A stretch of DNA of 64,000 nucleotides from a phage, in the sequence record PZ445428.1; one strand, 5' to 3'. Below are positions 6,165-53,537 of this stretch, piece after piece. Under the pieces are notes generated by a model. The model worked only from the letters and a program-made list of their open reading frames with translations, made no database searches and was not told the DNA's origin. A program made the translations under genes and the position numbers. The first letter of the stretch is position 1. The number at the start of each line of letters is the position of its first letter.

Positions 6165-6931
6165 TGTCTCTTTCTGATCTAGCTAGACAGATTATCAAAG
6201 AGCAGCTAGATACAGCAGGACGATCTGAAAATAATAAGAACACTGTTGTGTATACTGTTGAAACTGGGCTTAAAGATCCGAAAAGGGATGGTACTGTTGC
6301 GCAAGTATCATTCAAGTTCTCTAAACCAGTATCGCAGGACTTATTAAACGTGAGGACAGCCTCTATCTTGAAGGCTGTTTCCGCCAACTTAGATCTTTCT
6401 GGTGACTTAGGCGCTCTGGAAAATCTCATACAAGCCACGGCAGGCAAAAGATCAGCCGTTGGTAAGAAACGCTCAACTGGTAGGGTTCAAGTAAACTTTG
6501 GTGATCCTAGAGATACTGAAGATGGTTATTCAGGTGCAGTTACAGGTGCGGCTGGACGATTCGTTTCAAATAGTAACATGAAGGCTATCTTGGAGATAGT
6601 AGCTAAAGAATATCTTATTAAGGATATGAAGAAAGCAGGAGCGCCACTGAAATTCAGAACTGGACGTTTTGCTAACTCCCTTAAAATCAAAGATGTTATG
6701 TTACGTGATGCTGAAACAAGTCGTGGTGCTCCTGAACTTAATGTGACCTACAATTATATGGTTAGACCTTACTCAGTATTCAACCCCGCAGTATCCACCT
6801 ATCGCAGACTGTCTTTACGTCCTTACCCTGGGGCGAGAAACCCACAAAAACTTATTGGGGAAGCGATAGCTAAAGCTGCAAGAGACCTGATTCACTCTAG
6901 ATATAAAATCAAGGTTAATCAAGGAACCTAA
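6164..6931 (+). CDS. Structural protein, head-tail joining region (hypothetical)
   Basis: 255-aa ORF with AGGAGAG RBS, start overlaps upstream stop; synteny only. Confidence 0.35.
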   Translation: MSLSDLARQIIKEQLDTAGRSENNKNTVVYTVETGLKDPKRDGTVAQVSFKFSKPVSQDLLNVRTASILKAVSANLDLSGDLGALENLIQATAGKRSAVGKKRSTGRVQVNFGDPRDTEDGYSGAVTGAAGRFVSNSNMKAILEIVAKEYLIKDMKKAGAPLKFRTGRFANSLKIKDVMLRDAETSRGAPELNVTYNYMVRPYSVFNPAVSTYRRLSLRPYPGARNPQKLIGEAIAKAARDLIHSRYKIKVNQGT

Positions 6932-9757: not shown

Positions 9758-10158
9758 TTAACTTAAAAGATATTACCCTAGATACTCGCTCTGTTACGCT
9801 TTCCTACCCTGGTATGCCTAACTTTAAGCTTGAACTGAACTACATGTCTCGTGCTACCTCTAAGCGTGTTATTGCTTCTGCAAAACGTGATGAGTGGGTT
9901 AACGGTACACTGTTACAAGTTCAGGATGATGACAAGTTCATCGAAGCTTTCGTTGACTCTGCTATCAAAGGTTGGACTGGTCTGACTATTGGTGATGTTG
10001 AGAAGCTGATGCTGATTGAAACTGAAGCTGATCCATCTACCGAAGTTCCTTTTAGCCGCGATAATGCTGTGATGCTAATGCAGAACTCTGCTGCGTTTGA
10101 TTCTTGGATCAACCAGACAGTGTTCCACTTAGACACTTTTCGTAGCCCAAAAGCGTAA
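9754..10158 (+). CDS. Tail assembly chaperone candidate
   Basis: 134-aa acidic ORF directly upstream of tape measure region; position typical of chaperone. Confidence 0.35.
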   Translation: MINLKDITLDTRSVTLSYPGMPNFKLELNYMSRATSKRVIASAKRDEWVNGTLLQVQDDDKFIEAFVDSAIKGWTGLTIGDVEKLMLIETEADPSTEVPFSRDNAVMLMQNSAAFDSWINQTVFHLDTFRSPKA

Positions 10159-32269: not shown

Positions 32270-32299
32270 ATTATACTAGATTTCGAGAGAATTTAGCAA
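32270..32299 (-). promoter_or_regulatory. Early promoter cassette (copy B of a tandem pair)
   Basis: Minus strand TTGCTA-18 nt-TATAAT then ATATACATAAATTCGAGGAG. Confidence 0.45.
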
Positions 32300-34229: not shown

Positions 34230-36789
34230 CGAGAATCCTTTTCACGTTATCCAGATCTTTACATACAGCGATAAACTTATCATCCTTGTACTTGCTGTGG
34301 TCTGGATGCTCTTTATCCATAGCTGCTAACTTCTTGTATTCGAAGTCTGCGTCTAATAATACACCCTTAACATAACGAGTATATTCATCATCATCGATAC
34401 ACGCAATAGACGGGTGCTGTTTCTTCATCTTACCGCAGGAGTAGTCACGAGAACCCCCAGCTTCGGAGTCAGAATCAATACCGATTGGGCAATCAGGAAT
34501 ACTGATACCACGGTCTTTCTGAATGTTACGAATCAGAATCTGGTTATACTGCTCAATCAGATCTTCACGTACAATGGCAACCACGGAGTCGTGAACCAAC
34601 ATGACGATCTTCATCTCCTTTCCTAGACCCAGGGACAGGATTTCTTCATCAGCATCAATAGCACCTAATAGGAGACTGTCAGAAGATGCAGACTGAATGA
34701 TTGCGTTAAATCCAGAACGGATTTCTTCACCCTGAACACCACGATCTTCGGAGTGGATGTTGTGAAGACGACGTTTACGACCAAAGTGACTATAGATGAA
34801 TCCAAAGTTCTTGATCTGATCGTGGCACTTATCAATCCAACGCTTAAGCTGAGGGAACTGACCGAAGTAAGTTTCGATGTAATCTTTCGCATCTGCAACA
34901 GTACATTCAGTGAACGGTTCACCAGTTTTAGCTGCTTGCTCAAGCAATGCTTCGTTAACAGAATGAGCTACCTTAGCTGGGCCAGAACCATACAGAATAC
35001 CGAAGGTAATTGCCTTAGCTGCCTGACGCAGGGCTGGGAACAGTTTCTTAACATCACGTGGTTCACAGGATAACTTAAATACCATGTGGGCGATGTTAGA
35101 GTGGAAGTCAGGATACTTATCCGGCTCATTTTTCATGTTGATGAATACTTGTTGCATGTTTCTGTCACCAGACAGTACAGCAGCATAGTAAACTTCAGCA
35201 GTTGTTAAGTCCCATGCGATTACACGATATCCAGGTGGTGCAACTACACAACCCTTGATAATAGATTCATCACGAGGTAACTGTTGCAAGTTCAGTTTAC
35301 CAGAAGAACTCAGACGACCAGAAGTAGTCATGTGTTCGTGGAAACCTGTACGGATGCAACCATCGGCATCGATACTCAGAAGAATCTTCTCAACATAAGT
35401 AGAGATCAGCTTAGTCAGCTTACGAATCTCTAGCAGAGTCTTAGCAATCGGATGTTGAGTTGCTAATTCATTCAGAGCTTCTGCGTTCGTAGAATCTGCA
35501 CCAGTATCCGTCAACTTACCAGTTGGAGCCAAACCAACATAATCGAACAGAAGAACACGGAGCTGCTTAACAGAGTTCGGGTTAAACGCTTCATTCTGAT
35601 CCTGTTCTAGTTGCTTAACTTCTGGATAAGTATACAGATGCTCACGAGCCTTATTCAGACGATGAGTCAATTGATACTGAGCTTCTTTCAGACGATCTAC
35701 GGAAATAGGTACACCACGATCTTCAACACGTTGCAGGAATACACAACCGGGCATCAGAACTTCGTAATACAGATCACGCAGTTTCTCGTTCTTCTCAATC
35801 TTCGGTAAGAAGAAATTGTGCAGACGCAGAGTCGCATCGGTATCCTTCGCAGCATATGGCCACATAATATCAAATGGAATCAGATCATAGCTGAAATCCT
35901 CTTTCTTGATCTTATGCGCTTTGCAATAATCGTCCTTGAACTTATCGAGTTCAAAGTCGTAGTCACCCATGTCAGTATACTTCATAGCCAAAGATTTCAG
36001 GCCGTGAGTACCACGACGTTCATCGAGAACATAGTGCTGTAACATGGTATCATGAAGTCTACGCTCTTTACTTGCTTTCTCGAAGGAAAGTCCTAGATGG
36101 TAGGAGTAAAAGTGCATATCGAACTTCAAGTTATGGAAAACAATGTCATGCTTCTCACTGTCCAGGATCTTCTGGAGATAATGGACTGTCACTTCCGTAA
36201 GCACATCGGCATCAATATAAACACCCTGATACTCTTGGTGAGAAATGGAAACACCAAGCAGATAACCATCACGGCAATACAGAGCCGAGGTTTCGGAGTC
36301 AAATGCGATCGGGCCGATAACCATGGTATACACCATCTTGATGTATTCTTCGGCTTCATCAGGATCTGTAATCGGGCGATAATCACCAGCTTTAGCAATT
36401 TTCTCCCGACCATTAATAATGTCATGAATGCTTTCAACAGTTGCTTCAAAGACTGGTTTCATTTCAGGTTTAAAGTGTAACTGGGCTGGACTAATACTTG
36501 CAATCCAGTTCGCATAGCCATTATGCTCTACACGTTTACCGGTATAATCACCAATACCTTTCTTGCCTGCAAAATACAGGAAAGGTTCAGCACCAACTAG
36601 TACAACAAAATCGTAATCATTCGGATCGAATGGATTCTCTGGAGTTCCAATGGTAATATGCTTTTTCAGCAAACGCCCAGATAACTTCTCGTTACACATA
36701 TGGAATACATCAACTTCCTCACCGTAAAGCTGGAAGTGTTTATCATAACGAGTATTATTTAGAGCTTTATCAACTACTGCAATTTTCAA
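34222..36789 (-). CDS. DNA polymerase, family A, with 3'-5' exonuclease domain
   Basis: 855 aa; exo-like N-terminal region, motif B RQAAKAITFGILYGSG, motif C LVHDSVV; TTG start with AAAGGAG RBS. Confidence 0.9.
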   Translation of the reverse strand: MKIAVVDKALNNTRYDKHFQLYGEEVDVFHMCNEKLSGRLLKKHITIGTPENPFDPNDYDFVVLVGAEPFLYFAGKKGIGDYTGKRVEHNGYANWIASISPAQLHFKPEMKPVFEATVESIHDIINGREKIAKAGDYRPITDPDEAEEYIKMVYTMVIGPIAFDSETSALYCRDGYLLGVSISHQEYQGVYIDADVLTEVTVHYLQKILDSEKHDIVFHNLKFDMHFYSYHLGLSFEKASKERRLHDTMLQHYVLDERRGTHGLKSLAMKYTDMGDYDFELDKFKDDYCKAHKIKKEDFSYDLIPFDIMWPYAAKDTDATLRLHNFFLPKIEKNEKLRDLYYEVLMPGCVFLQRVEDRGVPISVDRLKEAQYQLTHRLNKAREHLYTYPEVKQLEQDQNEAFNPNSVKQLRVLLFDYVGLAPTGKLTDTGADSTNAEALNELATQHPIAKTLLEIRKLTKLISTYVEKILLSIDADGCIRTGFHEHMTTSGRLSSSGKLNLQQLPRDESIIKGCVVAPPGYRVIAWDLTTAEVYYAAVLSGDRNMQQVFINMKNEPDKYPDFHSNIAHMVFKLSCEPRDVKKLFPALRQAAKAITFGILYGSGPAKVAHSVNEALLEQAAKTGEPFTECTVADAKDYIETYFGQFPQLKRWIDKCHDQIKNFGFIYSHFGRKRRLHNIHSEDRGVQGEEIRSGFNAIIQSASSDSLLLGAIDADEEILSLGLGKEMKIVMLVHDSVVAIVREDLIEQYNQILIRNIQKDRGISIPDCPIGIDSDSEAGGSRDYSCGKMKKQHPSIACIDDDEYTRYVKGVLLDADFEYKKLAAMDKEHPDHSKYKDDKFIAVCKDLDNVKRILGA

Positions 36790-36802
36790 ATTTAGTCTCC
36801 TT

Positions 36803-36848
36803 TTGGTAAGTAAGTATAACTTCAGTGTTTCTTCTCTAACTTACCAAT
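36803..36848 (-). promoter_or_regulatory. 9-bp inverted repeat in the 5' leader of the DNA polymerase gene
   Basis: Plus-strand arms TTGGTAAGT (36803-36811) and ACTTACCAA (36840-36848) between the candidate -10 and the RBS. Confidence 0.4.
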
Positions 36849-36850
36849 AT

Positions 36851-36880
36851 ATTATACCAAATCTTTAAGCGATTCAGCAA
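36851..36880 (-). promoter_or_regulatory. Candidate promoter for DNA polymerase gene
   Basis: Minus strand TTGCTG-18 nt-TATAAT; lies in the 3' end of the primase gene. Confidence 0.35.
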
Positions 36881-37742
36881 CTAAAATTTCAATACGTTGT
36901 GCTAACGTATCGATCTCTTCTTTATTAAGATCACCTGGGTCTTTTCCTTCAGGAAGAAGGAAGTTACCAACTACAGGTGTTAAACGTGTTTTTGTACGGA
37001 TTAATTTAGCCAATGCTTGGGCAGCTTTATTACCCGAAGCATCGTTATCTAGTAAGATAACTACTACTCTAACTCCAGCAATAATATATGGGCTGAACTT
37101 ATCTGCAATGTTATCAGAAGTAAACTGATGTGTACCAAAGCAACAAGAGGCATAGTTTATCCCATTATCTTCTAGGTTCAACATATCAAAGATGCCTTCA
37201 ACTAGAACGAGAACTGGAGTATTATATCGTACAGGAAAAATCGGGGGTGAAACTTGTTTAGGTTTTACTAAGTATTTAGGAGGGGCAGAACTGTTTATAG
37301 AACGACCCAGGAATAGGATATTACGTCCAACAGCATCTGTTATTGGGAACACGATTCTGCCTTCCCAGTCTGCTTGATGTTGGAAAGCAAAATATTTCTT
37401 CAAGGTCTTAGAACTGATACCTCGGAAATCACCTTCGAAAAGGTAAGCAGATTCAGGAATTGCAAGATTCGTAGATCCATTCCTGATCTCTGAAATCTTT
37501 TTACGTACTTGTGACAATCTTGGTGACTGTCTGTACTGAGTCTCATTAAAATAATGGTAAATGCTCGGTATACCTTTACCGAAGCCGCAACTCAAGCAAT
37601 GCATAACTCCTGATTCAGGATCAATACGTAAACTTGGGTGCTTATCATCATGATCTGGGTTGAGACAACAGATGAGGATGTCCCCACCTGTGTCTTTGTA
37701 TTCAATGCCTTTCAGATCAAGTAGTTCTGTTATCCTACTCAT
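36852..37742 (-). CDS. DNA primase (DnaG-like, zinc finger plus TOPRIM)
   Basis: CLNPDHDDKHPSLRI...HCLSCG zinc-binding motif and VEGIFDM TOPRIM-like motif. Confidence 0.7.
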   Translation of the reverse strand: MSRITELLDLKGIEYKDTGGDILICCLNPDHDDKHPSLRIDPESGVMHCLSCGFGKGIPSIYHYFNETQYRQSPRLSQVRKKISEIRNGSTNLAIPESAYLFEGDFRGISSKTLKKYFAFQHQADWEGRIVFPITDAVGRNILFLGRSINSSAPPKYLVKPKQVSPPIFPVRYNTPVLVLVEGIFDMLNLEDNGINYASCCFGTHQFTSDNIADKFSPYIIAGVRVVVILLDNDASGNKAAQALAKLIRTKTRLTPVVGNFLLPEGKDPGDLNKEEIDTLAQRIEILVAESLKDLV

Positions 37743-53508: not shown

Positions 53509-53537
53509 TTGCTTTTTACTGTAGATATTGGTATAAT
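53509..53537 (+). promoter_or_regulatory. Sigma70-type promoter with extended -10 (phoH operon, proximal)
   Basis: TTGCTT-17 nt-TATAAT preceded by TGG (TGn-type extended -10). Confidence 0.45.

Follow-up and report, generated by a model that had tools for sequence, protein, structure and literature searches.

Hairpin control of the T4 lysozyme gene, gene e, was reportedly described by McPheeters et al. in 1986. The T4 genes e, soc, 49 and I-TevI are controlled by promoters placed inside hairpins (PMC3014915), and an RNA hairpin of another kind, the gp43 operator of T4 and RB69, is 16-18 nucleotides (nt) long, has a UAAC/UAAA-type loop and is bound by the family B DNA polymerase as its repressor (PMC3014915). 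In T5-infected cells an early promoter termed Ppol was detected by primer extension (Klimuk et al., 2020, PMC7472727). Here we analysed an inverted repeat between the primase and DNA polymerase genes in a 64,000-nt stretch of phage DNA (record PZ445428.1, hereafter the window), which is 100% identical to the T5-like Escherichia phage TrudiGerster (Demerecviridae, Epseptimavirus). The repeat forms the base, P1, of a leader RNA hairpin with three helices (P1-P3), which fills the primase-polymerase intergenic space. We tentatively propose, at slightly less than even confidence, that this hairpin, which overlaps a promoter, tells transcripts apart by their origin, separating read-through RNA from RNA made at the promoter.

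This arrangement resembles T4 e, soc, 49 and I-TevI in three respects. First, in the T4 genes the proximal promoter begins its transcripts inside the helix's 5' strand or beyond it, and the start predicted here is base 4 of the nine bases of that strand, a geometry repeated in the other hairpin-bearing clades. Second, long upstream transcripts form the T4 helix and promoter-made transcripts lack it, as is predicted at our locus. Third, the element stands directly before the ribosome-binding site of a phage gene. Unlike the T4 switch between early and late promoters, however, both transcripts would here be of the early class. T5 is a classical model phage whose post-transcriptional control is almost unexplored, and the leader hairpin offers a mutable target of 45 nt for asking how the dosage of polymerase is uncoupled from that of helicase and primase.

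A covarying hairpin in the polymerase leader

The genes around the repeat are all on the minus strand, primase first and then DNA polymerase, with a 62-nt gap between them (5' to 3' on the minus strand, gatTTGGTATAATATATTGGTAAGTTAGAGAAGAAACACTGAAGTTATACTTACTTACCAAAAGGAGACTAAATTTG). On this strand TTGGTAAGT (36847-36839) forms nine perfect pairs with ACTTACCAA (36811-36803) across a loop of 27 nt (36838-36812); on the plus strand the same repeat reads TTGGTAAGT at 36803-36811 and ACTTACCAA at 36839-36847. The minus-strand order is TATAAT (36856-36851), 5' arm, 3' arm, AAGGAG (36802-36797) and the start codon TTG (36789-36787), such that the 3' arm ends at -14 from the start codon, adjoining the AAGGAG. 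The initial annotation thus had the layout right, namely, a stem of 9 base pairs (bp) flanked by a genuine -10 element and by the ribosome-binding site of a TTG-initiated polymerase gene, although the loop it gave as about 28 nt is of 27 nt and its span of 36803-36848 included one base too many, since the repeat ends at 36847.

Taken alone, the repeat is not beyond chance. Perfect 9-mer repeats with loops of 3-40 nt number 35 seeds in the window, compared with 13.8 ± 4.1 in order-1 Markov resamples that keep the average dinucleotide content, and the single-sequence fold has a z-score of -1.56, with 15 out of 200 shuffles folding equally well. We accepted the repeat as real because it is conserved and covaries in relatives. 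In the consensus structure and pair counts obtained with RNAalifold from 10 distinct enterobacterial leaders, the loop of P1 holds two further helices, P2 (AAG 36833-36831 with CTT 36814-36812, minus strand) and P3 (AAC 36829-36827 with GTT 36820-36818, minus strand), the latter closing the apical hexaloop ACTGAA (36826-36821, minus strand). In seven out of 15 pairs both partners differ in one or more sequences, compared with 2.1 ± 1.0 doubly changed pairs in shuffles, and 92.7% of cells are paired, compared with 85.8 ± 1.5 in shuffles and 26-49% in slid controls; neither value was reached in any of 500 shuffles. The inner six pairs of P1 are the most conserved, and the inner helices change as well, with C-G to U-A in P3 of the Providencia and Proteus clades, and A-U to G-C in P2 of Proteus. 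With a sample of only about six independent lineages, the covariation gives the hairpin solid but not overwhelming support. The stem is therefore conserved in relatives and carries compensatory changes, the opposite of the lack of conservation that the initial annotation had named as counting against it.

The three outermost P1 pairs, whose 5' bases belong to the promoter discriminator and lie upstream of the predicted transcription start, co-evolve with their partners. In Enterobacter phage KKP_3711 the arms TATGTAAG and CTTACATA differ from those of T5 (TTGGTAAG and CTTACCAA) by two double compensations, both in the discriminator, where G-C became U-A and U-A became A-U relative to T5; Vibrio phages have G-C, A-U and G-C at these pairs. 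When discriminators were swapped among seven clades, the mean stabilisation was -5.1 kcal/mol for cognate and -2.1 kcal/mol for swapped combinations. In each clade its own discriminator was the most stabilising, and the natural assignment was the best out of 5040 permutations.

These data also bear on whether the repeat acts as DNA, either as a symmetric site for a dimeric regulator of Ppol or not at all, as a chance or relic palindrome. It does overlap the promoter, 9-bp repeats of this kind are expected by chance several times per window, and symmetric operators can show correlated changes in their half-sites. Yet the P1 arms lie 4 to 27 nt apart, depending on the clade; the transition mismatches in the arms across relatives are all G.U on the sense strand, none A.C; P2 and P3 covary too, as parts of one continuous hairpin; and conservation is far above that of synonymous sites. 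The sense-strand G.U mismatches, the variable loop and the co-evolution together argue for a sense-strand RNA helix rather than a symmetric DNA site, and a spacer of 27 nt disfavours extrusion of a cruciform. A symmetric DNA operator or a cruciform was thus disfavoured by the variable spacing, the sense-strand G.U mismatches and the covariation of the inner helices, and we regard a DNA-level or fortuitous origin of the repeat as highly improbable.

Predicted start site of Ppol and two putative forms of leader RNA

The T5 early promoters, among them PN25 and PH207, were reportedly studied by Gentz and Bujard in 1985. A sigma-70 early promoter of this type, TTGCTG-18-TGgTATAAT-ATATT, is found just upstream of the repeat on the minus strand. 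Its -35 hexamer TTGCTG (36880-36875) follows the A/T-rich gaaattttag and is separated by an 18-nt spacer from the -10 hexamer (36856-36851) of the extended -10 element TGgTATAAT (36859-36851). The discriminator ATATTG (36850-36845) contains ATATT and ends in TTG, the three outermost bases of the 5' arm. Wherever a clade has an intergenic promoter at this junction, the TATAAT is unchanged, also in the Vibrio phages, where it lies beyond the primase stop codon. T5 RefSeq has an unnamed 75-bp promoter at the homologous site, covering the -35, so the promoter itself is already annotated in T5. A generic promoter scan of the window does not call Ppol, because its -35 matches the consensus at only three out of six positions; this TTGCTx form is nonetheless common to other T5-type promoters, both in the window (nine others aligned) and in T5 (22). 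Klimuk et al. (2020, PMC7472727) also state that ATATT is present in the discriminator of all known T5 early promoters.

The position of the start follows from two lines of evidence. The promoter features of T5 RefSeq all span -55 to +20, a convention that splits PN25 between TATAATAGATTC and ATAAATTTGAG, and the T5 polymerase promoter between TATAATATATTG and GTAAGTTAGAG; and TATAAT-N6-ATAAATTTGAGAG is common to other promoters of the window and of T5. Together they place the predicted +1 at G36844 (minus strand), the seventh nucleotide after the -10 and the fourth base of the 5' arm. The nine other promoters of the window share TATAAT-N6-[A/G]TAA[A/G]TT[T]GAGAG, and this common motif indicates that the GTAAGT of the 5' arm, with the beginning of the loop, TAGAGAAG, would be Ppol's copy of the T5 initial transcribed region, to which the GTAAGTT part of the arm corresponds. 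Ppol therefore resembles T5 early promoters in its TTGCTx, A/T-rich upstream block, TATAAT, ATATT discriminator and initial transcribed motif (GTAAGTTAGAGAAG vs ATAAATTTGAGAGAG). It differs from them by G instead of A at +1 and +5, by its 18-nt spacer, and by a long structured leader: 55 nt from +1, compared with about 20-25 nt for most T5 promoters, most of which reach the Shine-Dalgarno sequence within about 15 nt.

Since the predicted +1 lies inside the 5' arm, only six of the nine P1 pairs would be encoded in RNA made from Ppol. In predicted folds, P1 pairs form with a probability of 0.8-1.0 when the RNA reads through, and of about 0.17 when Ppol RNA carries 115 nt of coding sequence; the fold energy of the untranslated region alone is -10.7 kcal/mol with the discriminator and -4.9 kcal/mol from +1, and the same trend holds in all seven clades. 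P1 ends 1 nt 5' of AAGGAG without overlapping it, and the Shine-Dalgarno sequence and the start codon are unpaired in all predicted folds, with an unpaired probability for the former of 0.59-0.97 in read-through RNA. In addition, the loop can pair alternatively with early coding sequence, in a duplex of -10.8 kcal/mol.

Because pairs upstream of the predicted +1 co-evolve, the selected RNA should include bases that precede the Ppol start, that is, it would be RNA that reads through from primase. According to the origin-sorting proposal, the full 9-bp helix, adjoining the Shine-Dalgarno sequence, would be confined to RNA transcribed through from the helicase-primase genes, whereas Ppol mRNA, which would start inside the 5' arm, would retain a weak 6-bp helix with its first base paired and its ribosome-binding site open. 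In the T5-like phages, where there is no U-tract, the full helix would most likely insulate the polymerase ribosome-binding site on read-through RNA by limiting standby access; it might also serve as a barrier or processing hairpin on the 3' side of the primase message. The efficiently translated form would in that case be the Ppol transcripts, with their paired 5' end. A role as intrinsic terminator was discarded for this hairpin, as no terminator was called at 36803-36847 in the window and the tail, AAAAGGAG, lacks a U-tract.

The paired first base of the Ppol RNA (GUAAGU with ACUUAC) raises another function, that of a 5'-terminal stem-loop that shields the mRNA from decay by RppH and RNase E, much as 5' hairpins protect the ompA mRNA from decay that depends on the 5' end. 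The untranslated region folded by itself begins its helix at the inferred +1 in five out of seven clades, and at +2 in Providencia PR1; the 55-nt leader is unusually long; the inner six P1 pairs, those retained in this RNA, are the most conserved; and such a role is compatible with origin sorting. However, in KKP_3711 the minimum-free-energy fold from +1 has its first 7 nt unpaired, the truncated helix has little stability (-4.9 kcal/mol, with a pair probability of about 0.17 once coding sequence is included), and stabilisation would explain neither why the three pairs preceding +1 co-evolve nor the terminator that takes the place of this hairpin in Vibrio phages. We consider stabilisation as the function of the element to be unlikely, though worth keeping in mind.

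The full helix, in turn, is expected only in read-through RNA, and it is intercistronic and immediately 5' of the Shine-Dalgarno sequence, as would suit a site where RNase III or another endonuclease cuts the polycistronic RNA, here at an irregular hairpin of a lower and an upper stem with an internal loop between them, and thereby parts the primase message from that of polymerase. T7 early RNA is separated in this way at intercistronic RNase III sites, and the Sugarlandvirus hairpin has about 19 pairs and -15.9 to -16.4 kcal/mol. In the T5-like phages, however, the pairs number only 15, interrupted and rich in A-U, a short substrate for RNase III, and our literature search brought up no experiment that points to processing of T5 RNA by this enzyme. 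Nor is there an Rfam match: a scan of 36500-37100 against Rfam 15 at E ≤ 10 assigned no family, the SpR08 hit being at chance level (15.6 bits against a gathering score of 80, E = 9.5). Processing is, in our judgement, an improbable purpose of the hairpin.

The leader itself is clearly under purifying selection, being far more conserved than synonymous sites. Third-codon identity over the first 290 polymerase codons is 64% between TrudiGerster and T5, and around 52% against KKP_3711, Sugarlandvirus and Slocum; from +1 to +39 the leader is 100% identical between TrudiGerster and T5, and around 87% identical against the other three. The apical loop has the consensus A[C/U]UGA[A/C], with UGA invariant.

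These features are what may be expected if the initial annotation was right in viewing the repeat as a translational operator, at which the T5-type polymerase, or another phage protein, would bind the hairpin, block the 30S subunit and repress polymerase synthesis. The stem, its placement beside AAGGAG, its conservation with covarying helices, and the constraint on the leader (about 87% identity vs about 52% at synonymous sites), together with the invariant UGA, have all stood. A weak TTG start would render expression sensitive to repression, and T4 gp43 provides the precedent (PMC3014915), with which our hairpin shares its position in a polymerase 5' leader near the ribosome-binding site and a loop conserved among relatives. 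Against an operator, the Shine-Dalgarno sequence and the start codon are never covered, and the helix would be incomplete on the polymerase mRNA: a start downstream of the repeat, which the initial annotation had named as telling against an operator, is nearly what we predict, with G36844 inside the 5' arm and six out of nine pairs left in Ppol mRNA as a weak helix, on which the co-evolving pairs upstream of +1 would not be needed.

Comparison with gp43 reveals further differences. The T5-type polymerase belongs to family A, for which our literature search turned up no RNA binding or autoregulation. The hairpin is of 45 nt with three helices and an ACUGAA loop, compared with 16-18 nt and a UAAC-type loop; and it ends at -14, without overlapping the AAGGAG at -13 to -8, and has the predicted transcription start inside its helix. 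Furthermore, Pectobacterium phages with a polymerase N-terminal region 77-80% identical (first 290 codons) have an unrelated leader without the hairpin. A search for the loop motif GAAGAAACACTGAAGTT at up to three mismatches found no further copies in the window, and thus no sign of a regulon. We know of no family A polymerase with RNA-binding or autoregulatory activity, and polymerase autoregulation via the leader has no specific support at this locus. We therefore see an operator that accounts for the hairpin as quite unlikely, and doubt even more that a family A polymerase, or another early phage protein, binds the ACUGAA-loop hairpin to repress its own TTG-initiated translation on top of origin sorting. 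If true, this would be, to our knowledge, the first autogenous translational operator of a family A DNA polymerase.

Relatives and the Vibrio terminator

Upstream regions of polymerase genes were gathered from IMG/VR, metagenomes and GenBank. Most sampled lineages have a promoter immediately upstream of the polymerase gene, and some environmental contigs have no evident -10, with primase coding sequence up to the polymerase start codon. A hairpin that begins 3-4 nt after the -10 and ends beside the Shine-Dalgarno sequence was found in seven clades, namely, T5 and Epseptimavirus (arms TTGGTAAGT and ACTTACCAA), Enterobacter phage KKP_3711 (TATGTAAG and CTTACATA), Sugarlandvirus (TTGGGTAAGT and GCTTACCTAA), Serratia phage Slocum (GGTAAGT and ACTTGCC), Providencia phage PR1 (an imperfect stem), Proteus phages Stubb and PM135 (GTTGGAT and ATCCAAC), and Vibrio phages of the pVp-1 group (a 13-bp stem). 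The metagenome scan added almost no new hairpin-bearing clades. One T5-like metagenome contig, SKEH01000150.1 (270-400), has a different upstream sequence, without a primase 3' end, and an unchanged -35, -10 and leader hairpin, which suggests that promoter and leader move as one unit.

In the pVp-1 group the element has the form of a canonical intrinsic terminator. Three nucleotides after the strong promoter TTGCAA-17-TGaTATAAT come GAGGTAATTCGGA-GAAG-TCTGGATTGCCTC and TTTTTATTT, that is, a 13-bp stem with a 4-nt loop and a U-tract of the form T5AT3. The Vibrio terminator stands in the same place as the hairpin of the window, with the TGnTATAAT of the polymerase promoter 3 nt before it. The 5' arms of the two are homologous (GAGGTAATTCGGAGAAG in Vibrio vs TTGGTAAGTTAGAGAAG), and the Vibrio helix, too, takes in three bases upstream of the predicted +1. 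The hairpin of the window differs by its 27-nt interrupted loop, its A-U-rich stem and a tail without a U-tract, whereas the Vibrio element has about 45 nt of further leader before the ribosome-binding site. RNA from the predicted Vibrio +1 would lack the three basal pairs and have CUC between the shortened stem and the U-tract, and a stem-to-U-tract spacing of this kind should weaken intrinsic termination. In the Vibrio phages, therefore, read-through RNA may be stopped at a terminator that the promoter's own transcripts would bypass by starting inside its stem.

If true, the Demerecviridae would have, at their primase-polymerase junction, an ancient element joining promoter and hairpin, in the form of a terminator bypassed by its own promoter's transcripts in Vibrio phages, and of a non-terminating hairpin beside the ribosome-binding site in enterobacterial phages. 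This would extend the T4 logic of a promoter inside a hairpin to an unrelated phage family and to transcription termination. Our literature search found no account of the leader hairpin, its covariation, the start-site overlap or the Vibrio terminator, with older work (Leavitt and Ito, 1989; Gentz and Bujard, 1985) lying outside its reach; on T5 transcription starts and on this leader it yielded Klimuk et al. (2020, PMC7472727) alone.

Several observations weigh against origin sorting. First, the T4 helix holds the Shine-Dalgarno sequence and/or the AUG, whereas the TrudiGerster helix adjoins a site predicted to be open; since the binding site is not sequestered, we describe the element as working like the T4 system, and not as a member of it. 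Second, the predicted +1 relies on alignment and on the way in which T5 promoters are annotated, transcription is assumed to continue from primase into the leader, and the translational penalty on read-through RNA is modelled from standby-site reasoning. Third, a weak terminator-like hairpin in the 3' coding end of primase (36913-36889, minus strand), just upstream of the Ppol -35, could lower the amount of RNA that continues into the polymerase gene. Fourth, the outer P1 pairs are broken in Serratia phage Slocum and Providencia phage PR1, and no such hairpin occurs in Pectobacterium phages My1 and DU_PP_V, Vibrio phages D51 and D151, or the environmental relatives, whose leaders are short. 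Fifth, the invariant apical UGA hints at sequence-specific recognition, which origin sorting does not explain. Finally, pairing between discriminator and leader is not a general rule of T5, as three out of 22 annotated promoters reach -4.5 kcal/mol or lower, compared with 6.9% under the null (P = 0.19); for Ppol itself, on its single sequence, P is about 0.05.

Two other promoters of T5 (NC_005859) show complementarity of this kind. In that of hegH, which encodes an HNH endonuclease (10062-10136, minus strand), the discriminator ATCTCC is complementary to the gene's own start region, GGAGAT, and in that of T5.090 (6338-6412, minus strand), the discriminator ATTCGT is complementary to ATGCGAAT in the start region. 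Only read-through RNA would mask these start sites, as may be compared with T4 I-TevI.

Neighbouring features and other observations

The primase gene (DnaG-type, 37742-36852, minus strand) ends with TAA at 36854-36852, inside the TATAAT of Ppol, and is co-directional with the polymerase gene. Its terminator-like hairpin at 36913-36889 consists of TCGATACGTT-AGCAC-AACGTATTGA followed by AATTTTAG; T5 keeps the pairing via U.G, and more distant clades seem to lack it. Further upstream, between a D5-like gene and helicase (39276-39248, minus strand), lies AAGGGGAGGGGGCTATGCTCCTTCCCCTT, a strong terminator-like hairpin with TTTGC after it and with 13 pairs, of which eight are G-C. It has GGAGG in its 5' arm and the helicase ATG (39262) in its loop, has no counterpart feature in the T5 annotation, and could both terminate transcription and mask the helicase start.

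The T5-type promoters of the window form a family of almost identical design, with an aaaatt block, TTGCTx, 17-18 nt, TATAAT, N6 and ATAAATTTGAGAG. Other -10 hexamers start at 32275, 32376, 40870, 44473 and 51310 on the minus strand, and at 53532, 60635 and 62059 on the plus strand, where the promoter at 53532 has the same unusual GTAAGTT start as Ppol. The pattern TATAATATATT, with at most one mismatch, occurs 13 times in the window, compared with 3.3 occurrences expected.

The primase-polymerase junction appears, from the genomes compared, to be an insertion hot spot. In Vibrio phage D51 (303-392) it has received an open reading frame of 29 amino acids (aa), rich in Cys pairs and with a TATAATATATT promoter of its own, and in Vibrio phage D151 (1-354) an HNH endonuclease gene. 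Among environmental relatives, 38 distinct contexts upstream of the polymerase gene share ATACGCTATAA[T/G]AAAGTAT, with an inverted repeat ATAC/GTAT around the -10. The flanking pair is complementary in 33 out of 38 (A..T in 23 and G..C in 10), the others being G..T (three) and T..T (two), which suggests that it covaries; some of these contigs seem to begin the polymerase gene almost leaderless. The T5-like matches also included records labelled as Corynebacterium, Campylobacter, Listeria and Obesumbacterium phages (e.g. PQ773600.1 and MG065692.1). One Corynebacterium and one Obesumbacterium record have about 96% DNA identity at the junction, and Campylobacter C13 was seen only as a 78% match at the protein level. 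These oddly labelled records are probably contaminated or mislabelled.

The polymerase gene (36789-34222, minus strand) encodes an 855-aa family A enzyme with a 3'-5' exonuclease domain, with Pfam matches to DNA_pol_A (1.7e-65) and DNA_pol_A_exo1 (1e-36). Its Shine-Dalgarno sequence, AAGGAG (36802-36797), lies at -13 to -8, 7 nt from the TTG start codon (36789-36787). The 30 residues from this TTG (MKIAVVDK...) are conserved, distant relatives use ATG at the same position, and the polymerase coding sequence of T5 RefSeq begins at the same TTG. An N-terminal extension or leader open reading frame was considered and rejected: there is an in-frame CTG 12 codons upstream, but no canonical start, a TAG lies just before it, and the ATG of relatives is at the position of the TTG. 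The polymerase coding sequence deposited for TrudiGerster (GenBank MZ501108, bas27_0033) starts at Met31, record position 37179, and gives 825 aa. Because the conserved N-terminus, the ATG of relatives and the coding sequence of T5 RefSeq all point to TTG 36789, the deposited version is probably 30 codons too short, and 36700-36789 of the window (minus strand) would belong to the gene.

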